18,256 bases of DNA from a virus. The notes under the pieces were generated by a model. The model had not been told where the DNA came from, did not search any database, and saw nothing but the letters and a program-made list of their open reading frames with translations. Below are positions 3,752 through 18,256 of this stretch, one piece after another. Location of the stretch: the UHGV virus genome UHGV-0117054, one strand, 5' to 3'. Both the position numbers and the translations under genes were made by a program. Positions within the stretch are counted from its first letter, which is position 1. The number at the start of each line of letters is the position of its first letter.

Positions 3752-6688
3752 ATGGCAAAAGAACAAAATGCTGGCAGCGTCGTCTATACGGTAAGCGCTG
3801 AGATCGAGCCCCTACTGATTGCTGGTAAGCAGGCCATTGATGTTCTGGATAAGCTGGATGCAGCCGCTCAACAATCTGGCAAGGGAATGGATAGCCTGGA
3901 CCAGAGTACATCCCATACTGGATCGGCGTTCAACGAACTGGCTGGATATGCCAATTCAATGGATAACCAACTGCGTAAACTGAACACCAATGTAAGCGGC
4001 ATAGCTCGCGCCATGGAAGAAGCTCGCAGCGGTACCGGGGGAGCAAACAGCGAATTCAATCGCGCTGAATCTATCATTGAGGCATTGGGTAACCAGTTGG
4101 CAATACTGGACGAGGCGCAGGAGAATGGTGCTCGCAGCGCTGCAGTGCTGGCAGCCCAGTTGCGCGCTGGCTCTAAAGCCACCGACGAAGAGAAGCAGAA
4201 GATCGGCGAGCTTACTGGTCGCTTATATGACATGAAGACTGGCGTTGAAAATGGCGCAAAAGGCACTGGCAGCTGGAAGTCCAGCATGCAGCAGGCTGGT
4301 TACCAGGTTCAGGACTTCATTATTCAGGTGCAGGGAGGTCAATCTGCGCTGGTGGCTTTCGCTCAGCAGGGCTCTCAGCTTGCTGGCGCATTCGGTCCGG
4401 GCGGTGCGATTGTCGGTTCTATCATTGCGCTGAGCTCGGTTATCGCTGGTGTGCTGATTACTTCGCTCAATGGCGGAAAGAACGCCATGGATGCTCTTAA
4501 GAGCGCTGCTGAAACCATGGATAAGGTTATTACCATTTCACAAAATGGTGTGGCCGCCCTCTCTGATAAATATGCCGCTCTGGCACAGACAAATATTGCT
4601 GTGGCAACCTTGATGAAAAAGCAGGCCGAGCTGGAATTGCAGGCTGCTCTATCAAACGTCTCAAAAGAAGTACAAAAGGCATCGAGTGACTTCATTAGCT
4701 TTGGTGATTCATTGATGTCTTCGCTGGGCGGTGGATATGCCAGCGTAAAATTATTTAATGACTATTTGTCCACGCTAAATATAACCACTAACGATTTCAG
4801 TGAGGCATGGAAGCAGGCAGCTGCCAGCGGGCAGGATGGTCAGTCAACGATGAACTCTATGGTGGCAACTGTTGCGGCCCTGTCTACCAAGTTCGATATT
4901 AGCGATCAGAAAGCTTTTGAGTTTGCTAAGCAACTTTCTGACATAGCGAAAACACCAACTGATGAAAAACTTAAGGCATTGGTTGTGACTCTGCAGGATG
5001 TCGGGAATGGGCAATCTTCTGGCGCGGCTAAGGCCCGGGAATATGCCAAAAGTCTCTTAACCATCATGGAGACAAGCACAGACGCTACTTCACGCCTTAA
5101 GGCTCTGAAAGAGATGACTGATAGCCTGACTTCCAGCCAGGATAAGGCGCTAAAAATCGCTCAGCAGGAGCTGTTTATTGCGCGGCAAACTGGTGAGGCT
5201 CAAATGAAAGCCAAGGCTTGGCGAGATGCCGAAACGCAGGGGCTGAAAGAGGGGACGGAAGCATTCAGGAAATACTACAACGTCAAGCTGGCAACCTATA
5301 AACAGGATGCGGCTAACGCTAACAGCAAGAAGGGAGCCAGTAGCGCTGCGTCAGAAGCTAAGAAGTTAGCCAATCAGCAAGAAACGGTGGCGCAAAAGCT
5401 TGAGAATTTGAGGCAGCAATCAGAGCTGACAGCCAAGTCGACGCAGCAACTCAGCCGCGAGCAGGCCATCCTCACTGCCCAGCAATCCTTGGGTGCAGCA
5501 GCAACTCAAAAAGACCTCGATCTTGCCGGACAGTATGCCGCTGCAAAATGGGATACGGCCAATGCGCTCAAAGCGCAGGCCGCCGCCGAGAAGCTCCTGC
5601 CGGAAGCGCGCGAAAACGCCAGCTATAAGCAGGATGTTGAGGATCTGAATACTGCCCTGACCGCGAAGAAAATCAGCCAGGAACAATACAACGAGACCGC
5701 AGAGCGCCTGGAGGCAACGCACCAGAACAACCTCGCCAAAATCCGTGCGCAGCAGGCAGTAACACCGCAGCAGGAGGCCGCTGGCGGCGTCGACCCGGTG
5801 CAGCAGCTGGCGAATGAGAACGCGCGTAAGCTGGCGCTCATTCAGCAGTACGAGCAGCAGGGCGTATTAACCCACCAGAATGCTTTGGCGCTGCGAGCTG
5901 CTGCTGATACAGAGTACGAGCAGGCGCGCATCGCTGCACAGTGGGAGATTTACCGTAATCAGAGCACTGGCAATGAACTGCTGGCCACCTCGCTGGAAGG
6001 CCTGCAGAGCGGGGCAACCAATGCCCTCACTGGATTAATCAACGGCACCCAGAGCCTGCAGGAGGCAATGGCTAACGTTGGCTCGACCATCATCAACAGC
6101 GTGATCGGCAGCCTCGTAGAAATGGGCATGCAGTGGGTTAAAAATCAGGTGATGGGGCAGGCAGCGGCGGCAGCCTCTCTGGCATCTACCATGGCGCAGG
6201 CAACTGCTGCAGCATCAGCTTGGGCGCCGGCAGCAATGAGTGCGTCGATCGCCACGTACGGCAGCGCCGCTGCTGTTGGTCAATCGGCTTATGCAGCCTC
6301 TCTTCTGTCAGCCAAGGGGTTAGCTGTCGCCGGTGCCCGCGAACACGGCGGGCCGGTCTCGGCCAGCTCCATGTACCGTGTGGGCGAAGGTGGCAAACCT
6401 GAGATTTTCAAAGCCAGCAATGGCAGCCAGTACATGATCCCCGGCGATAACGGTCGCGTCATCAGTAACCGCGATATTGGCGGTAGTGGCGGGGGGGCGT
6501 TCAATTACAGCCCGGTCATTCAGGTTAACGGGGATCCGACTGAGCAGCAGTTGGCCATGCTCGAGGCCGCGGTCAAGCGCGGCGCGCAGCAGGGCTATGC
6601 CATGGCCGTCAGCGACGTCGCCAGCGGCAAAGGAAAACTCTCCAACGCTCTGACCAACAACTTCAACACCAGTCAACGCCTCACATAA
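3752..6688 (+). CDS. Tail tape measure protein
   Basis: 978 aa, Ala/Gln/Glu-rich with long predicted coiled-coil stretches. It has an internal hydrophobic Gly-rich segment (…AFAQQGSQLAGAFGPGGAIVGSIIALSSVIAGVLITSL…). The C-terminal region (…YRVGEGGKPEIF…) resembles the lambda gpH C-terminus as I recall it. Confidence 0.9.
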   Translation: MAKEQNAGSVVYTVSAEIEPLLIAGKQAIDVLDKLDAAAQQSGKGMDSLDQSTSHTGSAFNELAGYANSMDNQLRKLNTNVSGIARAMEEARSGTGGANSEFNRAESIIEALGNQLAILDEAQENGARSAAVLAAQLRAGSKATDEEKQKIGELTGRLYDMKTGVENGAKGTGSWKSSMQQAGYQVQDFIIQVQGGQSALVAFAQQGSQLAGAFGPGGAIVGSIIALSSVIAGVLITSLNGGKNAMDALKSAAETMDKVITISQNGVAALSDKYAALAQTNIAVATLMKKQAELELQAALSNVSKEVQKASSDFISFGDSLMSSLGGGYASVKLFNDYLSTLNITTNDFSEAWKQAAASGQDGQSTMNSMVATVAALSTKFDISDQKAFEFAKQLSDIAKTPTDEKLKALVVTLQDVGNGQSSGAAKAREYAKSLLTIMETSTDATSRLKALKEMTDSLTSSQDKALKIAQQELFIARQTGEAQMKAKAWRDAETQGLKEGTEAFRKYYNVKLATYKQDAANANSKKGASSAASEAKKLANQQETVAQKLENLRQQSELTAKSTQQLSREQAILTAQQSLGAAATQKDLDLAGQYAAAKWDTANALKAQAAAEKLLPEARENASYKQDVEDLNTALTAKKISQEQYNETAERLEATHQNNLAKIRAQQAVTPQQEAAGGVDPVQQLANENARKLALIQQYEQQGVLTHQNALALRAAADTEYEQARIAAQWEIYRNQSTGNELLATSLEGLQSGATNALTGLINGTQSLQEAMANVGSTIINSVIGSLVEMGMQWVKNQVMGQAAAAASLASTMAQATAAASAWAPAAMSASIATYGSAAAVGQSAYAASLLSAKGLAVAGAREHGGPVSASSMYRVGEGGKPEIFKASNGSQYMIPGDNGRVISNRDIGGSGGGAFNYSPVIQVNGDPTEQQLAMLEAAVKRGAQQGYAMAVSDVASGKGKLSNALTNNFNTSQRLT

Positions 6689-6697
6689 GGAGTTCCC

Positions 6698-7168
6698 ATG
6701 GGGATCAGCAGCACCATTGATTTCCCGCACCAGTACCTGCCAATGCCTCAGCGTTCCGGGCATGGATTCACTCCGGTAAGCCCTCTCCAGCGTTCCACTA
6801 TGACATCCGGCCGCACGCGGCAGCGCCGCAAATACACCTCGGTTCCAACTGAGGCGGGTGTTTCATGGGTATTTAATGATGCCCAAGCGCAGCTGTTTGA
6901 GGTGTGGTTCAGAGACGTGATAACGGACGGCGCAGCGTGGTTCAACATGCGCATGCGCACGCCAATGGGCGTCGGTGACTACGTCTGCCGGTTCAAGGAT
7001 ATCTACGACGGGCCGGTGCTGTTCGGGTTAGGGTTCTGGAAATTCACGGCAACACTGGAGCTTTGGGAGCGTCCAATCCTGCCAGCTGGCTGGGGTAATT
7101 TCCCTGAGTTCATCGTGGGGCAGAGCATTATCGATTACGCGCTCAACAAGGAGTGGCCTGAAGCATGA
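6698..7168 (+). CDS. Minor tail protein (distal tail / gpM-like position)
   Basis: 156-aa ORF directly after the tape measure gene, with SD aaggag 6 nt upstream of ATG. Its stop overlaps the next gene's start. Assigned by synteny. Confidence 0.55.
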   Translation: MGISSTIDFPHQYLPMPQRSGHGFTPVSPLQRSTMTSGRTRQRRKYTSVPTEAGVSWVFNDAQAQLFEVWFRDVITDGAAWFNMRMRTPMGVGDYVCRFKDIYDGPVLFGLGFWKFTATLELWERPILPAGWGNFPEFIVGQSIIDYALNKEWPEA

Positions 7169-7653
7169 CCAGTCCAACCCTGAACAGGCTTTACGCCAGT
7201 GGCGGCAGCGAGGCGCTACTGAATACGCTGCAGATTACCGTCGGTGGGCAGGATTACTGGCTGGTCGAGAACTTCGAAGATATCACCGCTGTTACAGAGG
7301 CGGGGGCGACAGTGACATTCCAGGCGGCTGCCATGGCCGTCGCGCTGCCAGCCAGGAACAAAGACGGCACGCAGGATCTGCAGTTCGCCATCAGCAACAT
7401 TGACGGCATCGTTTCTACTGCGATACGCAACGCCCTGGCTAACCTGAACAACGGTACTCTGGTAATGCGGCAGTACATATCGACCGACCTTGGCTACCCG
7501 GCGGCACCACCTATCGTTCTGCAGATTAAGGACGGGTACTGGAAGGCGACCGAGGTGCAAATTACTGCCGGATTCCTGAATATCCTGAAAACCGCATGGC
7601 CGCGCTATCGTTACACGCTTCCTGTCTTCCCGGGGCTGCGTTATTTAACTTGA
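7165..7653 (+). CDS. Minor tail protein (gpL-like position)
   Basis: 162-aa ORF, ATG overlapping the upstream stop (translational coupling). Backbone GC. Assigned by synteny. Confidence 0.55.
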   Translation: MTSPTLNRLYASGGSEALLNTLQITVGGQDYWLVENFEDITAVTEAGATVTFQAAAMAVALPARNKDGTQDLQFAISNIDGIVSTAIRNALANLNNGTLVMRQYISTDLGYPAAPPIVLQIKDGYWKATEVQITAGFLNILKTAWPRYRYTLPVFPGLRYLT

Positions 7654-8470: not shown

Positions 8471-8851
8471 ATGTTCAATCCCGATAAATACCGTTCTGTC
8501 GAGTGGCAGAAGGGCGGACGCGCTTACCCCGCGCTGGACTGCTTTGGCATCGTCAATGAAATCAGGCGTGACCTTGGCCTGGCTCCGTGGCCTGATTTTG
8601 CCGGGGTTACGAAGGATGATAACGGCCTCGACCGGGAGGCGCGCGGACTGATGGCTGGCCTGACGCGATGTGAGCCTGCCCCGGGCGCGGGTATCGCCTG
8701 TTATTCAGGCTCTGTGGTGACGCACGTTGCCATCGTTGTTGAGATTGATGGCCAGCTTCGCGCCGCGGAGTGCAATCCCCGCACTAACGTAACCTTCCTG
8801 CCGCTGGCGCGGTTTGCGCGCCGCTTTGTTCGCGTGGAGTATTACCAGTGA
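8471..8851 (+). CDS. NlpC/P60-family tail-associated peptidase (lambda gpK C-terminal-domain-like)
   Basis: 126 aa. ALDCFGIV supplies a candidate catalytic Cys and VTHVAIVV a candidate His, spaced as in NlpC/P60 papain-like folds. It sits immediately upstream of the J-like gene with a GTGA stop/start overlap. Confidence 0.65.
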   Translation: MFNPDKYRSVEWQKGGRAYPALDCFGIVNEIRRDLGLAPWPDFAGVTKDDNGLDREARGLMAGLTRCEPAPGAGIACYSGSVVTHVAIVVEIDGQLRAAECNPRTNVTFLPLARFARRFVRVEYYQ

Positions 8852-11800
8852 CGATCCGAATCTATCCCTCACGCCTGCCCGGCGAGCCGCTGGAAAAGCA
8901 CGAACACGAAACGATGACCCTCAGCGCCTGGTTTGCGCGGAACGTGAAGGACTGGGCACCGGATCAGCAGCATCCGGTTGCGGTTGAAATCGACTGTGTC
9001 CCCGTCCCGGCGTCAGAGTGGCCACTGTGCGTTATCAAACGCGAAACCGACGTCAGGATGTATCCGGTGCCGTACGGTACCGGCGCAGAAATCGCGATCT
9101 GGGTTGCCGTCAGCGTAGCCGTTGCCTCTGCTGCGTACAGCATCTACATGATGAGCACAATGTCTCAGGCTGGCGGCGGCGGTGCCCAGGCGGCCAGCGG
9201 CGACCAGATTGACCTCAACCCGGCAAAAGCGAACGCGGCGAAGCTGGGAGACCCCATCCGTGAAATCTTTGGAAAATATCGCGTCTGGCCTGATTACGTC
9301 GTGCAGCCGGTAAGCCGGTTCGTGAACGAGACCAGCATGGAAACCAGCATGTTCCTGTGCGTGGGTGTCGGCGACATGGTGATTAACCAGTCAGATATCC
9401 GGATCGGTAATACGCCGATCTCCGCGTTTGGTACCGACGTGCGTTACACCCTCTACCCGCCTGGCGCCACGGTATCCGGCGATACGCGCACTGAAAACTG
9501 GTTCAATTCACCAGAGGTCGGGAATACCGGTTCCGGTACTGCCGGGCTGGACCTTGGCTCAAGCGGACCGGAGACGGTCAGCATTATCGCTGATGCGCTG
9601 GTCGTGTCAGGGAACTCCATCACGCTGGTTGACGTATCGTCGTCTGGCGATGAGGAGATCCCGCCGTCGTGGACCGTCGGAACGGTGATCACCGTACTGG
9701 CCCCAAATTCGTATACGGTCGTGTCGTCCGGCGGTTACAGCATGATTTATGGCGGGATAGAGGAACTTGCACCTTATGTAGGCATGCCGGTGACGCTGAA
9801 CTATAACGGCAATGACTACGATCTGGTGATTGCCAGCTATGCCCCGGGCGTTCCGGCAGTGCCGGGGGTGGGTGGGAGTGCCGCAACCATAACTGCCAGC
9901 GCCGCGCCGACCACCTACGACTTTAGCACCGCGCCTGTGACGTTCAGCATCAGCTGGCAGGGCACGACTTACCCGGTATCACTGGTCACCAACTACGTCA
10001 CCATGTCAGGCCTGGTTTCCTCGATCACCTCCCAGCTCGCAGGCTCTGGCCTGGTAGCGCGCGATAACAGTGGGCGGCTTGAAATCGGCGAGGCCAGTAG
10101 CCCATATGCTGGCGGGTCCATCACCAACAGCCCGTTACCCGTTGCTGTTTTCGGTGATGCTCCGGTTAATACGGCAGGCGTGAAATCAACGGGCGGCACG
10201 ACGGAGGTCAGGGCGCACATTACCCTGGCTTACAACAGCGCCACCGGTACGCCATTCACAGGGCTGCCAGAGGGAATTCAGCGCTTTTCTCTGGGGCTTG
10301 CCGGCAATCAGTTCCGGATCACCGATGTGGACAGCCAGACCATCACCGTAGAGCGGTTGACTGTCACCACAGGTCCTGGCGGCGAGACGATCACGACGCC
10401 GGATCCATCGTGGCCTGGCTTCACCGAGCGTACGCTGCTGGATGCGACCGTGACGGGTGTCAGTGACGATTACGAATGGGTTGGCCCGTTCCTGGCCTGC
10501 CCGGACGGCGAAACGCTGGACGCATTCGAGGTGAACATCAACTTCCAGAGCGGCCTGGTGCGTTATACCGATAAAGGTAACAAGCGCTCAATGCCCGTTC
10601 GCCTGGTGATCCAGTATCGCAAAGTTGGAACCACCGCCTGGCAGCAGCAGTCCCCGTTCTATTCCCGCAGTACTGAAAACCAGATCGGCTTTACACATCG
10701 CTACAGCGTGTCGCCTGGTCAGTATGAGATCCGGATGCGCAGAACCGAACCGGTTAAGGGCGGCAGCACGCGTGACCAGGTTTTCTGGCAGGCGCTGCGC
10801 TCCCGGCTGAGCAAGCGACCCACTAAGTACGACGGTGTCACTACCATGGCGCTGACCGTGCGCACTGGTAACCGCCTGGCAGCCATGTCCGATCGCCGTA
10901 TAAGCGTCACGCCAACCCGGCTTTACAGCGGCGGCAGAACTGCACGGAGCATCAGCGGCGCGCTTTACCATGTACTCGAGTCGCTTGGGTTCACGACCAG
11001 CCAGATTGACACAGCGGCGATTGATGCTCTGGAGCAAACATACTGGACGCCCCGCGGTGAGAAATTCGACTGGGCGAGCGGCGAGAGCAAGTCCGCACTC
11101 GAGGTGCTGCAGAAAATCACTAACGCAGGGATGGGGTATTTCCTGCTGTCTGATGGACTGGCGTCTGCCGGCAGGGAAGGCATTAAACCCTGGGTAGGCA
11201 TGATTACCCCGCAGGAAACCACCGAGGAGCTGCAGACTGCCTTTAAAGCCCCATCGCAGGACGATTACGACGGTGTGGACGTGACCTATATCAACGGCAC
11301 CACCTGGGCAGAAGAAACCGTGCAGTGTCGCCTGTCTGGCAACCCAACGCCGTTGAAAATCGAGAGCTACACGCTGGATGGTGTTCTGAATGAAGACCGC
11401 GCCTACCGCATCGGCATGCGCCGGTTGCTGGGCTACCAGTTGCAGCGCCTGCAGCACACCACCTCGACCGAGATGGATGCGCTCTGTTATGAGTTCATGG
11501 ATCGTATTGTGCTGGCAGATGATATCCCCGGCAGCGAGACGCTGAGTTGCCTGATTACCGATATGACGTATGACAGCAGCAAAATCACCATGACGCTTAG
11601 TGAGGCCCCGGACTGGTCGTTCCAAAGCCCGCGCGTGATTATCCGCCATCAGGATGGCAGGGCATCAGCCATGCTGGTACCGACACGCATTGACGACTTC
11701 ACCATCTCGGTGCCGTACAGCGCCGTGTTGGAGCCGGAATTGTGGGCTATGAACGACGCGTACATTGAACCACCGCGCCTGCTGTTCTGCTCATCTGTTC

Positions 11801-11931
11801 GGGTGCCGTATGACGCTCTGGTCGGCGAAATATCACCGGGTAACGATGGGATAAGCCAGGTTACGGCTATTCAGTATCACCCAGGAAAGTACGCCTACGA
11901 CGACGCCACATACCCCGGCGACGCCGCTTAA
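8848..11931 (+). CDS. Host specificity / central tail fiber protein (lambda gpJ-like) with an N-terminal gpI-like region
   Basis: 1027 aa with GTG start. The central region (…SPGQYEIRMRRTEPVKGGSTRDQVFWQALRSRL…) resembles the NIRMRRMTP block of lambda J as I recall it. The first ~170 aa have a small domain, then a hydrophobic helix (AEIAIWVAVSVAVASAAYSIYMM) and a Gly-rich linker, like lambda gpI. Confidence 0.85.
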   Translation: MTIRIYPSRLPGEPLEKHEHETMTLSAWFARNVKDWAPDQQHPVAVEIDCVPVPASEWPLCVIKRETDVRMYPVPYGTGAEIAIWVAVSVAVASAAYSIYMMSTMSQAGGGGAQAASGDQIDLNPAKANAAKLGDPIREIFGKYRVWPDYVVQPVSRFVNETSMETSMFLCVGVGDMVINQSDIRIGNTPISAFGTDVRYTLYPPGATVSGDTRTENWFNSPEVGNTGSGTAGLDLGSSGPETVSIIADALVVSGNSITLVDVSSSGDEEIPPSWTVGTVITVLAPNSYTVVSSGGYSMIYGGIEELAPYVGMPVTLNYNGNDYDLVIASYAPGVPAVPGVGGSAATITASAAPTTYDFSTAPVTFSISWQGTTYPVSLVTNYVTMSGLVSSITSQLAGSGLVARDNSGRLEIGEASSPYAGGSITNSPLPVAVFGDAPVNTAGVKSTGGTTEVRAHITLAYNSATGTPFTGLPEGIQRFSLGLAGNQFRITDVDSQTITVERLTVTTGPGGETITTPDPSWPGFTERTLLDATVTGVSDDYEWVGPFLACPDGETLDAFEVNINFQSGLVRYTDKGNKRSMPVRLVIQYRKVGTTAWQQQSPFYSRSTENQIGFTHRYSVSPGQYEIRMRRTEPVKGGSTRDQVFWQALRSRLSKRPTKYDGVTTMALTVRTGNRLAAMSDRRISVTPTRLYSGGRTARSISGALYHVLESLGFTTSQIDTAAIDALEQTYWTPRGEKFDWASGESKSALEVLQKITNAGMGYFLLSDGLASAGREGIKPWVGMITPQETTEELQTAFKAPSQDDYDGVDVTYINGTTWAEETVQCRLSGNPTPLKIESYTLDGVLNEDRAYRIGMRRLLGYQLQRLQHTTSTEMDALCYEFMDRIVLADDIPGSETLSCLITDMTYDSSKITMTLSEAPDWSFQSPRVIIRHQDGRASAMLVPTRIDDFTISVPYSAVLEPELWAMNDAYIEPPRLLFCSSVRVPYDALVGEISPGNDGISQVTAIQYHPGKYAYDDATYPGDAA

Positions 11932-11950
11932 CCCAAATCAAAATTATCTG

Positions 11951-11973
11951 ACCCGCTTCGGCGGGTTTTTTTA
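11951..11973 (+). terminator. Intrinsic terminator between J-like gene and tailspike gene
   Basis: acccgc-ttcg-gcgggt hairpin followed by tttttttat. The tailspike SD (ggag) follows directly. Confidence 0.55.
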
Positions 11974-11987
11974 TGCCCGGAGCTAGC

Positions 11988-14432
11988 ATGACCACATATG
12001 CCACGAATAACCCGATAGGGTCCATGGATCCGAAGGACCTTTTCGATAACGCCCAGAATCTGGACTTTGCGGTAAACGATATTACCAAAGCCATCTGGAA
12101 GGACCGTTTTGGGAGGGACAGAAAAACATACTGGGGCATGGAGCAGGCCTTTTCAGCTCAACTTCTAAGCCAGAAGCAGATTGGAGAAGCGCAACTTCAG
12201 AACCAAAAGGAAGAGCTGGATGCGCAGTTACTGTCGCAAGAGCAGCGGTTCAGTTATTTCATTATGAACTCTGGCTACAAATTTGTTGGAGAATACACAG
12301 ATGGGCCTCTAACCGTTACTGACTATAACCAGTTGATTCGCTATCAGAATGAGCTTTATAAGTTAAAGGCCGACACAGCGGTTCCATTTACGACAACCGG
12401 CAAGAATGCCACCTCATGGGTCAATGATTTCGCTCATTTTATCAACGTTGCCGATGCGGCATTAAGGCAGCAAATTGGGGATCCTTACGGGGCTGAAAAA
12501 TACCCAGAACTTCAATTGGCACGTTGGCGTGATGAGGGGGACGTTCGTGGCTGGGGAGCCATTGGTGATGGGTTGAATGATGACACTGATGCCATTTTAT
12601 TATGCTTTGCTGATGCTAAATTACGAGGAGGCCGGACAAAAATCAAGTTCCAGCATGGAACCTACCTTGTTCGAGGAACAAGCCTAATAATCGACTTTCC
12701 AAACGTCTTATTAGAGGGAAATTGGGCAAAACTTAGATTGGTCGACAGTCCGACAGTAATTCAGGGGCCAGTTCTAAAGGTTGCGCAATATGGCAACACG
12801 TCTGTTCGAGGCACGGTAGAAAATGTAACCATCAAAAACCTTGAAATTGATGGCAACAAGCTGAACCAGGTCCAAACCATGAACACGGGAGGGGATGCGA
12901 ACAATCCAGGCTTTGTATCAGAAGACGTGGTGAATCTGCATGTAGAAAATGTTATCTCCCGTAACTGTGACGGATACGGATTTCTCTTCGCTGGCTCTAA
13001 TCTTCCACACCGTAAAGGCGCTTACTTCAAAAACTGCTGGGCACACGGCAACAACGTCGACGGTTTTGACATCAAGGCTGGTTTCAATCATGTCACCCTA
13101 GATAGCTGTCGTTCATGGGATAATGGCTATGCGCCGATGGTTGAACTTCGCTCCGGCATGGGTATCGACATTCGCGGCAAGAACGTCACTCTCCTGAACT
13201 GTGTGGCAGGTGACGAAGGTAGTAATTACGCAGGTAACTTCCGTATCCGTGAAAATGCTCAGGCTGGCATCTCGCTGTTTGGTTGCCACAGCCACAATAG
13301 CCCGGATGGTACTTATGGTTTTATGTGCATTGGTGGTGGTAATACAAATATTTCCTTAGTTAGCTGCACATCCACCAACGATGGCACGTCACTGAAGCAT
13401 GAGCGTGGACATGTCACAGCAGTGGGATTCCGGTCATGGAAACCTCGGCTATTAAGTGTGCTGCAATACCCTTCTCAATTTGTGTTGAGCACACTGACGG
13501 CAGCAGCCACGTTTACTGCCTTTGGTGTATCAGTAACCATTCTCCCGAGCGATTATCTTAGTGCAACCGTGGGGTCTGAAATCAAGATCCCTACTAACAC
13601 CGGTACGATTTACCTACTGGTGAACGAGGCAGTTTCATCGACGCTGGTGTGCACGGTGCTGCGCGGAAATCTGGGGACGGCTGCGGTGGGCGCAAGCATC
13701 ACCACGGTATCGACAGGCAGCCTGACCATAGATGGCGGTATTTCTTATCAGTCTGCCAGCGACGCCATGCAGTTTGCCTCTACGTTACAGACTCTGACGG
13801 ACAGCTCGATGCCAGTAACCATAAATGGCTTTATCATAGAGGCACCAATCCGCTACGGGGTGAACTTCCAGGGTGGTGATGTGAGTTTCTTTGGCGGCGC
13901 AATTCGTAACTGTGGCAAAGGGTCATCCTCCCCTGGATTTTTCGTCGGCAATGCGGCTACTGCTGAATCAACATTCCGGTTGGACAGCGTATTCATGGGG
14001 AATGATGACAAATCATTCACGCAGTCAGCCGGCCTTCAGTTCCAGTCAACAAGCCTGGCGAAAGGGAGCGTTAGAGCGTGTAAATTCGCCGATAATGCCA
14101 ACTCGCCAGTCATTGGCTCGCCATCTTCTGGTGTGCGGTTTGCAGACAATATCGGCTACACCAACGAGGGTACATTCTCTACAACAATTGATGTGACAAC
14201 TGTTGGGGTGAAAACATTCTCAATTCCGCATGGGCTAAGCAAAGCACCTTCTGGTAAAGATGTGCAACTGACCATCCAGCGGTCTGGGGCGGCGAATGAC
14301 TACGTTCTCTCCACTCCGATGATTACCGGAGCAAGCTCTACAATTATTTCTGGAAGGGTGTCCGTACTCACGGCTAGCGCAACCACAGGTGAAGCCGCAA
14401 CAGTAAACGCATTCATCAGCGCCAACCCATAG
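11988..14432 (+). CDS. Tailspike / receptor-binding protein with pectate-lyase-like parallel beta-helix (putative polysaccharide depolymerase); start ATG 11988 preferred over 11973
   Basis: GDVRGWGAIGDGLNDDTDAI matches the GAxGDGxTDDTxAI signature that opens the beta-helix in phage depolymerases. Asn/Gly-rich beta-helix rungs follow (NCDGYGFLFAGSN, NCWAHGNNVDGFDIKAGFN, GKNVTLLNCVAGDEGSNYAGNF, CTSTNDGT). ggag lies 6 nt upstream of ATG 11988. GC is intermediate. Confidence 0.8.
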   Translation: MTTYATNNPIGSMDPKDLFDNAQNLDFAVNDITKAIWKDRFGRDRKTYWGMEQAFSAQLLSQKQIGEAQLQNQKEELDAQLLSQEQRFSYFIMNSGYKFVGEYTDGPLTVTDYNQLIRYQNELYKLKADTAVPFTTTGKNATSWVNDFAHFINVADAALRQQIGDPYGAEKYPELQLARWRDEGDVRGWGAIGDGLNDDTDAILLCFADAKLRGGRTKIKFQHGTYLVRGTSLIIDFPNVLLEGNWAKLRLVDSPTVIQGPVLKVAQYGNTSVRGTVENVTIKNLEIDGNKLNQVQTMNTGGDANNPGFVSEDVVNLHVENVISRNCDGYGFLFAGSNLPHRKGAYFKNCWAHGNNVDGFDIKAGFNHVTLDSCRSWDNGYAPMVELRSGMGIDIRGKNVTLLNCVAGDEGSNYAGNFRIRENAQAGISLFGCHSHNSPDGTYGFMCIGGGNTNISLVSCTSTNDGTSLKHERGHVTAVGFRSWKPRLLSVLQYPSQFVLSTLTAAATFTAFGVSVTILPSDYLSATVGSEIKIPTNTGTIYLLVNEAVSSTLVCTVLRGNLGTAAVGASITTVSTGSLTIDGGISYQSASDAMQFASTLQTLTDSSMPVTINGFIIEAPIRYGVNFQGGDVSFFGGAIRNCGKGSSSPGFFVGNAATAESTFRLDSVFMGNDDKSFTQSAGLQFQSTSLAKGSVRACKFADNANSPVIGSPSSGVRFADNIGYTNEGTFSTTIDVTTVGVKTFSIPHGLSKAPSGKDVQLTIQRSGAANDYVLSTPMITGASSTIISGRVSVLTASATTGEAATVNAFISANP

Positions 14433-14539
14433 GGCTCAGGAGGAAGTGGAACGAGATCGAACCAGCGCAGGAAAAGCTGGTAGCTGATTCATATGTTGTG
14501 GGTGAAAAATACGGAATCAGATGCAAGGAGGCTTTAGTG

Positions 14540-14632
14540 ATGGAGGCTACTCTTCATCGCCGTAATCATCAAAGGTTACTGTCGCAGTTTGAGGCTCTGG
14601 CTGAACGAGTGGGAAATCTAGAAGCAAAGTAG
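14540..14632 (+). CDS. Possible 30-aa small ORF with strong RBS (may be a remnant)
   Basis: aaggagg sits 8 nt upstream of the ATG. Translation MEATLHRRNHQRLLSQFEALAERVGNLEAK. No other support. Confidence 0.2.
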   Translation: MEATLHRRNHQRLLSQFEALAERVGNLEAK

Positions 14633-14796
14633 CTTTCTGATGCACTAATCGTCAATCCTACCCAAACAGAGAGGGTGCTTTCGCTACGTCATATTCGCAT
14701 CTTTTGGTGGCGCAAGAGCACCCTCAATCCTGCATTTGTAAAATTCACTACTGATATCAAAATTAGTGGTTAGACCCCAAAACCACACACAAATCA

Positions 14797-14825
14797 TTGA
14801 CCCGTCCCAGCAAGTATTGCACAAT
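14797..14825 (+). promoter_or_regulatory. Candidate sigma70 promoter for the AsnB-like cargo gene
   Basis: TTGACC, a 17-nt spacer, then CACAAT, about 70 nt upstream of the ATG at 14898, in an AT-rich intergenic region. Confidence 0.3.
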
Positions 14826-14897
14826 CTTGGTTGTTTACTCTGTTAACCAAATAGTTATCAACTTTAAATATTGCCAATTATCTTGCGCGGGAATTAA

Positions 14898-16727
14898 ATG
14901 ATAAACTTTATTGTTTTAAATGGAAAAAGCGAGTCTGTTAAGAAATTATACGAGACAGCGCAGCAGGCCCTAAAAAGGAACTTAACATTTAAGCCAGTAG
15001 AGGTGGCTAATAAAATATCTGGTAGCGGAGCTTGGGCATATACAGCATGTGGCAATGCGGAAGGCGAAATATCAAAAAGAATAACATCTAAGCAAAGCGG
15101 CGTATGCCTGATAAATGGCCCTGTTTTAAGGATGTGTGATAGCTATGATGTCTCAGATGCCGCACTTGATGCCTCCACCAAAAACGATGCGGAATACATG
15201 TTTGACAATATTTCCGGGTCTTACAACTTCGTTTCAATAACCTCTAAGAATGGCCTCCTTGCTTTCGGCGATTTCTCAGGCACCTGTCCTATTTATTACA
15301 CAATAATTGATGGCGTAACTTGCGTAAGTAACCGGGCATCTGCATTGCATGAACTGCGCGGGAATAGTAAATATAATATTTCTTCTTTGAGCTGGTTAAT
15401 TGGGCATGCCAATATATTTGGCAATGAGTCACCTTTTGAATGCGTGTATTCAATTACAGCTGGTAGCTATTTAAAGTCACCACTTGGTTCAACAACAGTA
15501 AACATCAATAAATTTAAGAATCAGATATGGCCTTCAAATGACGATGCTCAGTATCTGAACGACCTCTCAGGTGATGATTGGGATTTGATAGTAGATGAGT
15601 TGGTGAAAAACTTTAAGGCTGCAAGTGAAAACATTCCCGGCGAACTCCGTTTATCACTCACCGGTGGTAAGGACTCTCGCCTTGTCCTTGCGCTGGCATT
15701 GGGTGCAGGATTCAAAGACAGGATCACCACATTTACGAACGGCCCGGAAGGCAGCCCAGAGATAAGCTGTGCACAGAACATCGCCAACAAAATCGGCGTT
15801 AAGCACGTCGCTAACGTTAAGGCTCCACAAGTTAAAGCTCAGGATTTTGCTAATTCATGGGAAAAACTTAACTGGCATTCCTACAGAATGGAAAGTTATA
15901 TTTGCCCATGGGATGGAGCAACAGCTGAACGCACCATCAAAAATATAACGTCCGATATGACTGGCTTTGGCGGCGAGCTATATCGCGGACCCGGCGGACA
16001 CGCCAAGCAGTTTAAAAACCTGTCCTTTATGGACAATAAAGATGCAATTCTTTCTAAGTTCATAAACTACCATCAGAAGATGGATCCATTAAACATTCTC
16101 TCCAGTTTGTATAAAAACGCTCAAATAGGTTGGTTCTACGGCTGGCTTGAGGAGAATATTAAATCTGTAAGGTTTGATGTTTTACCTGAGAAGTTCTTCG
16201 TAGAAAACCGTCTTTCCAATTGGAACGGCCCTCTTGCTCAGAACGTCACAGGCAGAATTAAACTGATGCCACTTCTCTCTCCTAAAGTTGCGCGTTTGGT
16301 ATTCAAGCTCAGCCCGGAGGCCAGGAACAAAGAATTGTTCCACTACAGCGTCATGGCAAAGCTGGCTCCTGAATTAGTTTCTCTGCCATTTTTGAATGCG
16401 ACATGGGATAAATCATTGCAGGGTAGATTTGGCCTTGATATCGCAGATGCTCCTTATGATAGCGGGGTTAAATTCACGCCAAGGTCTGTGCAAGCATGGC
16501 AGGCTCAATTTGTCGAAGGTCAGCGAGAAGAAATCGTGCACTTGCTTGAAAGAGCCGCCGAATATACAAACATCAGAGAGATATTTGACGTCGATAAATT
16601 ATGCGAGTACGTCCGGGAAAAGGAAGGGATGAACACCATAGAAATCAAAACTATCCTCTCCTCAATTGCTGTTGCCATTACCTTGCTGAATGATCAGGAA
16701 AGCGTAGAGGACCTTGGCCAGGTGTAA
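14898..16727 (+). CDS. Asparagine synthetase (AsnB) family amidoligase-like protein; N-terminal domain lacks the Cys nucleophile
   Basis: 609 aa. PP-loop SLTGGKDS at residues ~254-260 (AsnB has SGGLDS near 234-239). TGFGGELYRG matches the AsnB GEGxDExFGGY block and GRIKLMPLLSP the E-x-R-x-PFLD block. FGDFSGTCPIYY matches the RDxxGxKPLYY motif of the N-terminal domain. It starts MINF…, not MC…. GC is about 38-40%. Confidence 0.75.
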   Translation: MINFIVLNGKSESVKKLYETAQQALKRNLTFKPVEVANKISGSGAWAYTACGNAEGEISKRITSKQSGVCLINGPVLRMCDSYDVSDAALDASTKNDAEYMFDNISGSYNFVSITSKNGLLAFGDFSGTCPIYYTIIDGVTCVSNRASALHELRGNSKYNISSLSWLIGHANIFGNESPFECVYSITAGSYLKSPLGSTTVNINKFKNQIWPSNDDAQYLNDLSGDDWDLIVDELVKNFKAASENIPGELRLSLTGGKDSRLVLALALGAGFKDRITTFTNGPEGSPEISCAQNIANKIGVKHVANVKAPQVKAQDFANSWEKLNWHSYRMESYICPWDGATAERTIKNITSDMTGFGGELYRGPGGHAKQFKNLSFMDNKDAILSKFINYHQKMDPLNILSSLYKNAQIGWFYGWLEENIKSVRFDVLPEKFFVENRLSNWNGPLAQNVTGRIKLMPLLSPKVARLVFKLSPEARNKELFHYSVMAKLAPELVSLPFLNATWDKSLQGRFGLDIADAPYDSGVKFTPRSVQAWQAQFVEGQREEIVHLLERAAEYTNIREIFDVDKLCEYVREKEGMNTIEIKTILSSIAVAITLLNDQESVEDLGQV

Positions 16728-16761
16728 CGCCAGCCGGGATTATTGATAGGTATCGCCTCAT

Positions 16762-16819
16762 TGATCTGCACCTCCTTTAAAACTACTGTATATAAAAACA
16801 GTAAAAGGAGTGCAGATCA
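16762..16819. repeat. Inverted repeat bracketing the SOS box and the start of the downstream ORF
   Basis: tgatctgcac at 16762-16771 and its reverse complement gtgcagatca at 16810-16819, extended by tcc/gga with a one-base bulge. The arms flank the LexA box, and the right arm overlaps the GTG at 16810. Confidence 0.4.
16784..16803. promoter_or_regulatory. LexA operator (SOS box) in an AT-rich promoter region
   Basis: TACTGTATATAAAAACAGTA is a perfect CTGT-N8-ACAG palindrome with an AT-only spacer. From memory it matches the strong E. coli umuDC operator. It lies directly upstream of the 16810 and 17058 ORFs. Confidence 0.7.
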
Positions 16820-17058
16820 TACCCCGCCAATCAGACATTCACAGCGCATTTGTCGCTGCAGTACAGCAAAACCCAAAGGGTTATCAGTGCCTTCATACGA
16901 ACGACTTCATCCGTGAGTTGCGCGCGAGAAACTGGCATTTCAGCCAGGTCGACGCCAACGAGTGGATCCAGCGCTATCAAGAGTTCTTTGTCGACAAGAC
17001 GCCTGACCACAGTGAAAACCGTCTCTGGATGCTACGTAACATGGGGAGGGTTCTGTAA
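16810..17058 (+). CDS. Hypothetical 82-aa protein, first ORF downstream of the SOS box (start uncertain)
   Basis: GTG start with the SD too close (aaaaggag immediately before it). Its stop overlaps the ATG of the UmuD'-like gene (TAATG). No recognisable motifs. Confidence 0.3.
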   Translation: MQIIPRQSDIHSAFVAAVQQNPKGYQCLHTNDFIRELRARNWHFSQVDANEWIQRYQEFFVDKTPDHSENRLWMLRNMGRVL

Positions 17059-17453
17059 TGGGCTTCCCTTCGCCGGCTGGCGACTATGTAGAGCAGCGGT
17101 TAACTCCGGAGCGAATCTGCGGTGTTGGCGTCGACACTCGCATCCTGGAAACCTCATCCGGCTTTGCCGTTATCGAGCCGTGCACCAGGCTGGTACAGAA
17201 TCAGGTTCTGCTGATTTTATCTGGCGGCAGAACGCAGTTTGCCCGGGTAATGGGTAGGGCATTAATCACTGATGATGGTGAAGCGATCGAAGGGGAGGAG
17301 GCGGAGGAAGTTGAGGTGCTGGGGCGCGTGACGTTCTTCATCAACAGCGCGCTACAGGATGACAGGGTGGGTGATGGGTGGCATTACGCCACCTTTTCAT
17401 CAAGCCAGTCCGCCCACCACTGCATCATTTCTCTGCGCTTATCGAGATACTGA
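17058..17453 (+). CDS. UmuD'-like (peptidase S24-fold) protein, natively leaderless and likely catalytically degenerate
   Basis: N-terminus MGFPSPAGDYVEQR matches the UmuD segment right after the Cys24-Gly25 cleavage site (CGFPSPAADYVEQR), so the ORF begins where processed UmuD' begins. An in-frame stop lies 18 nt upstream. The SGDSM serine motif and the catalytic KK region are not recognisable. GGAGG sits 7 nt before the ATG. The last ~23 codons overlap the integrase 3' end. Confidence 0.6.
   Translation: MGFPSPAGDYVEQRLTPERICGVGVDTRILETSSGFAVIEPCTRLVQNQVLLILSGGRTQFARVMGRALITDDGEAIEGEEAEEVEVLGRVTFFINSALQDDRVGDGWHYATFSSSQSAHHCIISLRLSRY
17377..17398 (+). terminator. Hairpin plus T-tract at the convergent junction with the integrase (possible + strand terminator)
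   Basis: ggtggc-attac-gccacc stem-loop followed by tttt. It lies inside the C-terminal extension of the UmuD'-like ORF and over the integrase stop codon. Confidence 0.35.
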
Positions 17454-18256
17454 GCATGGTTGTAAATCCCGCGCACAGATCCGCCGTTGGCATGTGCCAG
17501 TTGCACTTCAATAGCATCAGCAGGCCATTCGTGCTCGTTCATAATCGTGCTGAATTCATGCCTGAATCCGTGACCGCTTTCCAGACCCTCATAGCCGATT
17601 TGTTTGATCACAAGCAATACCGCGTTCTCGCAGATTGGCTTCTTCTTATCGTTGCGCCCGGCAAAAACAAACTCTGATACTGGTTTAGTGATTGAGCTTA
17701 GCGTAGTGAGAAGTTCAACCACCTGGTCTGACATCGGGACCACATGAATTTTGCGTCCCTTCATCACACTGGCGTCGATGGTGATAATCCTGTTTTCAAA
17801 ATCGACGTTCTTCCATAGCATGGAACGAAGCTCTTTCGTTCTTAGGGCTGTGTAGCGTAAAACTTTGGTCGCAATGAGCGATACGATACTTCCTGAAAAT
17901 GTTGCCAGTGCTTTGTTGAATGCCGGGATCTGGTCTGCAGGAAGAAACGGGAAGTTCTTCTTGCGGTATCCCTTCATGGCGTCAGCAAGGTCAGGTGCCG
18001 GGTTATATTTAGCCCTTCCGGTGACAATAGCGTAACGGAAAACCTCGCCGCATCTTCTGCGTGCTTTGTTGGCTCGCTCCATTGCACCGCGATCTTCAAA
18101 TCTGCGGATTACTTCCAGCAGTTGCATCGGCTCAATATCCTGAATCTCAAGGCCGCCGATGATGGGTAAAATGTCGTCATCAAACATTTTTGCAAGTTCA
18201 GTTGCATAGCCTACTGACCAGACTTGCTTCTTGTGCTCGTACCATTCCTTGTAAAT
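17384..18256 (-). CDS. int: Tyrosine recombinase / phage integrase (P4-type), N-terminus beyond the window edge
   Basis: The reverse frame stays open to the window end (…IYKEWYEHKKQVWSVGYATELAKMFDDD…). The C-terminal catalytic region has HGFRHEFST (HxxR) and VRGIYNHAQYLD (catalytic Tyr), ending …QWWADWLDEKVA. Confidence 0.9.
   Translation of the reverse strand: MYKEWYEHKKQVWSVGYATELAKMFDDDILPIIGGLEIQDIEPMQLLEVIRRFEDRGAMERANKARRRCGEVFRYAIVTGRAKYNPAPDLADAMKGYRKKNFPFLPADQIPAFNKALATFSGSIVSLIATKVLRYTALRTKELRSMLWKNVDFENRIITIDASVMKGRKIHVVPMSDQVVELLTTLSSITKPVSEFVFAGRNDKKKPICENAVLLVIKQIGYEGLESGHGFRHEFSTIMNEHEWPADAIEVQLAHANGGSVRGIYNHAQYLDKRREMMQWWADWLDEKVA

Follow-up and report, generated by a model that had tools for sequence, protein, structure and literature searches.

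Several bacteriophages are known to encode counterparts of UmuD', the processed form of the SOS mutagenesis protein UmuD. A tblastn search with UmuD identified many phage proteins that begin at UmuD residue 25, including HumD of P1, P7 and D6, N15 gp26 and proteins of phiKO2, HK639 and HK140, with further examples in Hafnia phage yong1 and Aeromonas phage pAEv1818. P1 HumD has been reported to promote SOS mutagenesis as a UmuD' homologue (McLenigan et al., 1999, as cited in PMC11541004), and in the GenBank annotation of P1, which lists a LexA site upstream of the gene, HumD is said to be a protein that 'functionally complements E. coli UmuD''. Here we analyse a stretch of 18,256 nucleotides (nt) from the virus genome UHGV-0117054 (referred to throughout as the window), in which a predicted LexA operator precedes two overlapping open reading frames (ORFs), the first encoding a winged-helix protein (ORF1) and the second a truncated UmuD'-like protein (ORF2). 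Judged by sequence comparison, this unit is a diverged, shorter branch of the known HumD kind joined to an uncharacterised winged-helix partner, and not a new kind of system. A previous sequence-only reading of the window had treated such a module as apparently undescribed, which proved incorrect, since P1 HumD, N15 gp26, phiKO2, HK639 and HK140 gp28 were already known and PHROG 3469 is catalogued as 'UmuD-like protein'. The features of the unit are as follows.

16760-16769, plus strand: -35 region ATTGATCTGC (TTGATC at 16761-16766), a decamer identical to that of the E. coli K-12 umuDC promoter
16784-16803, plus strand: predicted LexA operator (SOS box) TACTGTATATAAAAACAGTA, the sole CTGT-N8-ACAG found in a scan of the 18 kb and identical at 20 of 20 positions to the K-12 umuDC box
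16805-16810, plus strand: Shine-Dalgarno sequence AAGGAG of ORF1, 8 nt upstream of the canonical start; in other copies an ATG follows the homologous positions
16819-17058, plus strand: ORF1, 79-residue winged-helix protein (PHROG 3893); the canonical ATG position is ATA here, with an in-frame GTG at 16810
17043-17050, plus strand: Shine-Dalgarno sequence GGGGAGGG of ORF2, 7 nt before the ATG and invariant in seven aligned copies
17058-17372, plus strand: core of ORF2, 105 codons, a 'mini-HumD' (truncated, UmuD'-like, predicted S24 fold) without the catalytic Ser loop and Lys
17370-17453, plus strand: position of a 1-nt deletion, with the read-through tail of 26 codons that it creates, antisense to the 3' end of the integrase gene and foreign to the family

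The promoter of the unit closely follows that of umuDC. The K-12 umuDC promoter has the same -35 decamer, the same 14-nt gap between decamer and operator and the same 20 operator bases as the window and, because all three are identical, the unit uses a control region of the umuDC type. At umuDC, the LexA operator is tight and induction is late. The predicted operator of the window matches the LexA 20-mer consensus at 18 of 20 positions, and none of 200 shuffles gave a match to this consensus even when up to three mismatches were allowed. A weak -10 element, TACTGT (16784-16789), lies inside the operator, separated from the -35 element by a 17-nt spacer. Since this -10 element matches at only three of six positions, a strict sigma-70 scan called no promoter; the promoter is assigned by its identity to that of umuDC. 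We scanned 87 related loci for the box, comprising seven fetched by hand and 80 from IMG/VR, and found it at a fixed distance from the ORF2 ATG in 84 of them, either -271 to -277 nt or, where ORF1 is absent, -33 to -36 nt. Of the three remaining loci, one is truncated, one carries GCAG for ACAG and the third no longer has the box. Across the related loci the CTGT and ACAG ends are constant and the AT-rich centre is variable; TTGATCTGC is kept in six of the seven aligned copies of the module, and CACCTCCTTTAA is common to the promoter spacer of HK639 and the window. The sequence-only reading had placed a LexA operator in front of a two-ORF unit, and both elements are supported by these comparisons. 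The ORFs themselves also behave as a pair: they are coupled in translation, the ORF1 stop and the ORF2 start overlapping in TAATG (17056-17060), an arrangement kept in LAU1, RCIP0114 and HK140, and the median ratios of non-synonymous to synonymous substitution rates (dN/dS) are 0.14 for ORF1 and 0.09 for ORF2. Both genes are under strong purifying selection.

The product of ORF2 begins M-GFPSPAxDYVE, and its M1-G2 aligns with C24|G25 of UmuD, so that the protein starts where UmuD' starts, with neither the pre-cleavage N-terminal arm nor the Cys24-Gly25 cleavage site. The multiple alignment shows that the loop bearing Ser60 (DSMIDGGISDGD), of about 12 residues, is deleted in the family (in an ungapped alignment UmuD Ser60 falls opposite Ala37 of ORF2), and a search of the family alignment for an invariant Lys found none, leaving no Ser60-Lys97 dyad. 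The start at the UmuD' position and the degeneracy of the Ser/Lys motifs had both been anticipated by the sequence-only reading. Homology to UmuD is detected at the level of profiles: ORF2 matches PHROG 3469 ('UmuD-like protein') with an E-value of 1.1e-44 over residues 1-103 of 106, and a search of the PDB with the family profile matches both UmuD and UmuD' (E 2e-5), with residues 2-41 corresponding to UmuD 25-64 and the last strand aligning weakly. Members of PHROG 3469, referred to below as the mini family, are usually 104-107 residues long. The suggestion that the protein has an S24 or UmuD fold is upheld by structure prediction, which yields a LexA/signal-peptidase (S24-like) beta fold, together with the profile link to UmuD and HumD; a Foldseek search of BFVD with the predicted structure returned weak CI/LexA-like matches only (E > 0.02).

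The closest relationship is to the HumD types. Comparison by hhalign of the window's family (alignment A7) with HumD types (alignment A6) gave a probability of 99.2% and an E-value of 8e-20 between columns 1-106 and 4-131, with 106 aligned columns and two deletions in the window's family. HumD of P1, as well as N15 gp26, phiKO2 gp23 and HK639_28, shares with the mini family the start MGFPSPAxDYVE at UmuD' Gly25, a LexA box directly upstream in a phage without umuC, and unconserved Ser60 and Lys97 positions. HumD and most full-length representatives of the mini family also have a C-terminal tip that UmuD lacks, consisting of acidic residues, a proline and a hydrophobic end, which reads EFDDCPV[ILM] in HumD and DDxP[VAIT][IMV] in the mini family. 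The two differ in length (105 residues in the mini family and about 128-132 in HumD) and in the RecA-pocket motif ATYF, kept in HumD and lost in the mini family. Moreover, HumD types pass the cut-offs of Pfam S24 and of NCBIfam HumD, neither of which the mini family reaches, and a winged-helix gene usually precedes the mini gene, unlike humD. Outside the arm, the mini family has about 20% identity to E. coli UmuD', and relative to UmuD and umuDC it lacks the pre-cleavage arm and cleavage site, the Ser/Lys dyad and the adjacent umuC, and has the C-terminal tip in addition.

A similar arrangement is found in HK140, in which gp27-gp28 have a TTGATCT -35 element, a LexA box, a 79-residue ORF1 homologue (63% identical), the TAATG overlap and a UmuD'-like gene, as in the window. 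This pair is annotated as 'hypothetical protein' and 'UmuD-like protein' and, like the window unit, lies between tail fibre and integrase. Unlike the mini gene of the window, however, the second gene of HK140 is a full-size HumD type of 129 residues; a divergent dinI occupies the same intergenic region and attP is annotated across the 3' end of the UmuD-like gene. The two types of gene also occupy similar positions in other elements. HumD-type genes lie between tail fibre and integrase in HK639 and pAEv1818, between the tail fibre gene gp25 and sopBA in N15, where a LexA box precedes the gene, and before phd-doc in P1, with the annotated LexA site. Mini genes lie between tail fibre and integrase or at the prophage end and, on plasmids, before a PHD antitoxin gene (Citrobacter plasmid) or past the invertible tail-fibre region and before sopA (Salmonella plasmid). 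HumD-type and mini genes look like exchangeable cassettes in one slot.

By analogy with HumD, the unit may be a prophage 'moron' operon that provides a UmuD' surrogate for host UmuC, a proposal to which we give an even chance. In an undamaged lysogen, LexA would keep the operon off. Upon DNA damage and cleavage of LexA, the operon would deliver a UmuD' surrogate that is already truncated, bypassing the slow, RecA*-dependent conversion of UmuD to UmuD'. The surrogate would then dimerise and partner host UmuC, as reported for P1 HumD, so that translesion synthesis is supplied or altered while the damaged genomes of host and phage replicate. In favour of this proposal are the identity of the promoter to that of umuDC, the profile homology to HumD over its full length, the common start, tip and slots, purifying selection, the wide distribution of the family, the pairing of ORF1 with a full-size HumD-type gene in HK140, and a locus (L049, described below) in which a mini gene is joined to umuC. 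The HumD precedent favours co-option of DNA polymerase V (Pol V) over its poisoning and over antirepression.

Several observations weigh against the proposal. The activity of HumD cannot simply be carried over to the mini family, which compared with both HumD and UmuD' has lost the dozen or so residues around Ser60 and more of the middle of the protein. The Pfam S24 model (PF00717) gave no match to ORF2 at E<=1, the NCBIfam UmuD model NF007621 scored 16.6 bits (cut-off 110) over residues 2-16 only, and the NCBIfam HumD model NF051876 scored 28.3 bits (cut-off 120) over residues 1-21 only. UmuD contacts RecA* through Y52 and residue 54, which form a pocket for RecA F203, and through an acidic patch at D91/E93 (PMC9926225). 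These contact residues are lost in ORF2, where the opposing positions are I29, an invariant E31 and, depending on the alignment, G56/R58 or R58/Q60. Finally, the copy in the window has neither the conserved C-terminal tip nor the canonical ORF1 start.

Within the mini family, 28 of 37 full-length representatives carry the tip DDxP[VAIT][IMV], and two large clades end otherwise, in DDRVV (E. coli and Leclercia, the window's clade) or SDSLAV (Klebsiella). SSB, which binds single-stranded DNA, has the C-terminal hexapeptide motif DDDIPF (PMC5872125), which the tips EFDDCPVI, DDDIPIM, DDSPF and DDxPxI (alignments A6 and A7; L004 3001-3330) resemble. The SSB-like tip is absent from UmuD and has been lost from the window copy. 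Read from sequence, it is conceivable but doubtful that the tip of HumD and mini-HumD mimics that of SSB and, with the co-translated winged-helix protein, forms a phage SOS device that plugs a pre-activated, RecA*-independent UmuD' surrogate into the SSB/UmuC hub of the host, or alternatively that ORF1 represents a new class of LexA-controlled antirepressor travelling with the mini gene. If such an SSB-mimicking device existed, translesion synthesis would be reprogrammed, and not just supplied, in lysogens of clinical Enterobacterales. At L117 (HK140) 2599-2745, the annotated attP overlaps the final 30 nt of the UmuD-like gene, and many IMG/VR prophage contigs stop 0-340 nt past ORF2; part of the variation among the C-terminal residues may stem from attP/attB junctions. 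One protein, P0266 (141 residues), has a full UmuD N-terminal arm with cleavage site (..LREI..LFSDSMQC|GFTSPAADYVE) fused to a degenerate mini-HumD body, a sequence that suggests recombination between a host umuD and a prophage gene at the conserved motif.

ORF1 matches PHROG 3893, a family of unknown function, with an E-value of 4.9e-42 over positions 2-79 of 79, and its homologues form 168 clusters, nearly all of 79 residues. Searches of ORF1 against Pfam, NCBIfam and PADLOC gave no match, and those against PHROG matched only families of unknown function. The protein is roughly neutral in charge. By analogy with the upstream genes impC and dinI, we considered ORF1 as a DinI/ImpC analogue and rejected this on the basis of its fold. 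ORF1 is mosaic relative to ORF2, being only 35-38% identical to that of the window in loci where ORF2 is 80-88% identical. There are at least two very different ORF1 allele types, about 35-38% or 60-100% identical to that of the window and all beside an ORF2 that is 80-88% identical; the loci concerned are L011, L024, L050, L056, L057, L059, L067 and L081, at about -240 nt from ORF2. The occurrence of such different ORF1 alleles beside similar ORF2 genes implies that ORF1 and ORF2 recombine independently. Each may also occur alone: ORF1 is absent from L004, L045, L086 and L104, and HK225 has ORF1 but no UmuD'-like gene. A dinI homologue shares the short intergenic region of ORF1 in HK140, HK225 and Eeyore and is transcribed divergently from it (dinI cluster loci L117 of HK140, 1649-1915; L118, 1662-1949; L119, 1638-2120). 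In these three phages dinI and ORF1 form a small cluster of SOS genes at the tail-fibre/integrase junction, a place taken in the window by a gene for a 609-residue protein.

The copy of the unit in the window carries two small lesions. The sequence-only reading had described the ORF2 product as a 131-residue protein; the ORF is real, but the family is normally 104-107 residues long and the extra 26 residues arise from a 1-nt deletion. In both the window and E. coli N9, one T is missing in codon 105 (at about 17370), converting the canonical GTG GTG TGA to GTG GGT GAT, and it is this loss of the TGA that adds 26 codons and gives ORF2 its length. The read-through tail occurs in 4 of the 120 best-listed homologue clusters and is predicted with low confidence (pLDDT, the predicted local distance difference test score, of about 50-60). 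The frameshift also removes the free DDRVV end of the window's own clade. The second lesion is the ORF1 start, which is ATG in almost all loci and ATA in the window, N9 and Nord122; the GTG at 16810 that the ORF finder lists coincides in part with the Shine-Dalgarno sequence. In N9, whose copy is 99% identical, the Prokaryotic Genome Annotation Pipeline (PGAP) flags ORF2 as an incomplete pseudogene. With ORF1 starting at ATA, and both the stop and the conserved tip of ORF2 lost, expression or function of the window copy is probably weakened. The copy thus looks slightly decayed, with all else intact.

Whether the window unit is simply a decaying, non-functional remnant, whatever the family does, can be judged against these lesions, and we consider it unlikely. 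An ATA in place of the ORF1 ATG, the replacement of the conserved ORF2 C-terminus by 26 unrelated residues after loss of the stop, the incomplete flag in N9 and the rarity of the tail are what a remnant would present. However, both frames are otherwise intact, as are the operator, the two Shine-Dalgarno sequences and the TAATG overlap; comparison of the window with other copies gives dN/dS values of 0.08 and 0.12, the ATA lineage occurs in three independent E. coli genomes and ORF2 has its own strong Shine-Dalgarno sequence. A different proposal is that the protein acts against Pol V, forming inactive heterodimers with host UmuD or UmuD' or sequestering UmuC, which would damp SOS mutagenesis or enforce a UmuD-like checkpoint during prophage induction. 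The best-kept parts of the protein, the N-terminal arm and the last strand VxVxGxVT (corresponding to LDVFGVV of UmuD'), would suit this role, the core is so heavily remodelled, with loss of the RecA* contacts, that full activation of Pol V is not guaranteed, and the hybrid P0266 shows that umuD and mini genes can recombine. Against it, the homologous HumD is reported to promote mutagenesis and not to block it, and mini genes replace HumD-type genes in the same slots, suggesting equivalent function. We therefore hold antagonism to be improbable, and co-option of Pol V by a HumD-like surrogate remains the preferred reading.

Two further explanations place the target of the unit elsewhere. The operon could act as an SOS-triggered antirepressor, in which a product binds a non-cleavable prophage repressor and brings about induction; the winged-helix ORF1 would be a likelier candidate for this than ORF2, whose S24 fold would have to bind the repressor C-terminal domain. 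Operons under LexA control in which a small antirepressor accompanies an SOS-accessory homologue have been described, for example Gifsy dinI with its antirepressor (PMC3121763), and the window unit resembles the operons of this class (Gifsy dinI-gftA/gfoA, 186 Tum, N15 AntC) in being a small prophage operon with a LexA box, an SOS-accessory homologue and a small protein of its own, although that homologue is UmuD'-like and not DinI-like as in Gifsy. General family scans gave no likeness to Tum, GfoA, GftA or AntC, a direct comparison not having been made. The mosaicism of ORF1 would be expected if it tracked a variable partner, and the only repressor of a module-bearing Klebsiella phage is a 135-residue Cro/CI-type protein, too short for an S24 cleavage domain. 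Set against this, the operon occurs without ORF1, and ORF1 without a UmuD'-like gene, in the loci given above; the same module, 99% identical, is present in both a P22-like prophage and a GpJ-type siphovirus; the conserved features of ORF2 are of the UmuD'/HumD type and not those of CI dimer interfaces; and ORF1 is roughly charge-neutral, with no match in Pfam, NCBIfam or PADLOC. An antirepressor role is consequently quite improbable. The other explanation is a role at RecA* itself, whereby a non-cleavable S24 domain with a post-cleavage-site arm would dock in the groove of the RecA filament and compete with LexA, UmuD or CI, tuning the SOS response in the manner of DinI. Two residues of the UmuD cleavage-site region that touch RecA (PMC9926225), F26 and P29, are preserved in the alignment as F3 and P6, and this promoter region has dinI as its divergent neighbour in HK140, HK225 and Eeyore, so that the locus collects modulators of RecA and SOS. 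Yet the pocket for F203 of RecA loop L2 (Y52, residue 54 and F94) and the D91/E93 patch are unconserved, with an invariant Glu at the position of residue 54 and basic or neutral residues at D91/E93, and F18 of the UmuD arm is absent, making this explanation very unlikely.

The sequence-only reading had also noted that no UmuC-like partner accompanies the unit, and this holds for the window and for nearly all related loci scanned. A tblastn search with UmuC found no match in the window, in 86 of the 87 related loci, in the copies on Leclercia chromosomes or in 13 relatives belonging to other genera of Enterobacterales. These relatives came from a search of genome contigs for the N-terminal motif, which gave at least 15 among the matches listed; two of them (L113 and L114) are true umuDC loci and scored positive in the UmuC scan, serving as controls. 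The single related locus with umuC is L049 (IMGVR_UViG_2639763135_000002, 5717-7592), which has the order tail fibre, LexA box, ORF1, ORF2 and umuC, with ORF2 and umuC joined by the TGATG overlap typical of umuD-umuC. Its umuC is of the host type, encoding a protein 84% identical to E. coli UmuC with one in-frame stop, and is followed by host genes resembling yedK and dacC. Either a prophage end has recombined into umuDC at this locus or some phages integrate at the umuD-umuC junction. We asked whether the C-terminus of the L049 ORF2 is chimeric with umuD and rejected this, its tail DDDDNPVM being a normal family tip. Decay of a host umuDC operon was likewise rejected as the origin of the unit, which is phage-borne, under purifying selection and not beside umuC; the related genomes have no full-length umuD-umuC at this place.

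The module is widespread. At 90% identity, the window protein retrieved 1057 clusters and a Klebsiella relative 821, and a search at 50% identity returned 294 representatives. Members of the mini family are frequent in the prophages and phage-plasmids found in Klebsiella, Enterobacter, E. coli, Leclercia, Citrobacter and Salmonella. Among 5,426 complete E. coli genomes, most of the module is present in at least 30, and 194 show a partial match, chiefly to the promoter and ORF1. Plasmid copies are mainly in non-mobilizable replicons of 45-120 kb, and the two that were inspected look like phage-plasmids. Phage UmuD' surrogates can alter the extent and timing of mutation in lysogens after DNA damage, including damage by quinolone antibiotics. 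Reduced to the arm at its N-terminus, a minimal beta core and the tip at its C-terminus, the mini family provides a natural minimal UmuD'/HumD that could show which parts are needed with UmuC, and the conserved winged-helix gene beside it is an uncharacterised SOS gene. The advance is incremental, since the HumD concept is 25 years old and the 'UmuD-like' annotation already exists.

The window represents the tail-to-integrase end of a temperate siphovirus genome, and the IMG/VR contig IMGVR_UViG_3300045988_007063 is 100% identical to it across ORF2. Its genes encode, in order, a 1027-residue GpJ-like protein, an 819-residue beta-helix fibre or spike and the 609-residue protein, followed by the SOS unit and a convergent integrase:

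17384-18256, minus strand: 3' part of the gene for an IntS-type tyrosine integrase, which leaves the window (Pfam Phage_integrase, E 3e-39, and Phage_int_M)

The integrase gene is a neighbour of the operon and not a member of it; intS is annotated beside tRNA-Arg in E. coli N9, PK12 and Nord122. The 609-residue protein (14898-16727, plus strand), between the tail fibre and the SOS unit, has weak similarity to the PP-loop of Asn-synthase/QueC (SLTGGKDSR). Its only PHROG match (E 7e-8) is to a family of unknown function; the gene is an unexplained moron, possibly for a nucleotide- or amide-modifying enzyme. A PADLOC scan of ORF1, ORF2 and the 609-residue protein found no match to a defence system. 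No terminator was found at 17373-17460, between ORF2 and the convergent integrase gene, and the int stop lies about 8 nt from the canonical position of the ORF2 stop, so that SOS-induced transcription would enter int antisense. In LAU1, unlike the window, a clear terminator follows the UmuD'-like gene. When E. coli N9 (L001 3747-7817) was compared with window positions 8848-18256, the module and the integrase end were 99% identical at the nucleotide level (778 nt compared), whereas upstream of the shared module N9 carries a P22-type tailspike and the window GpJ-type siphovirus tail genes. The module and int appear to move jointly between phage types.

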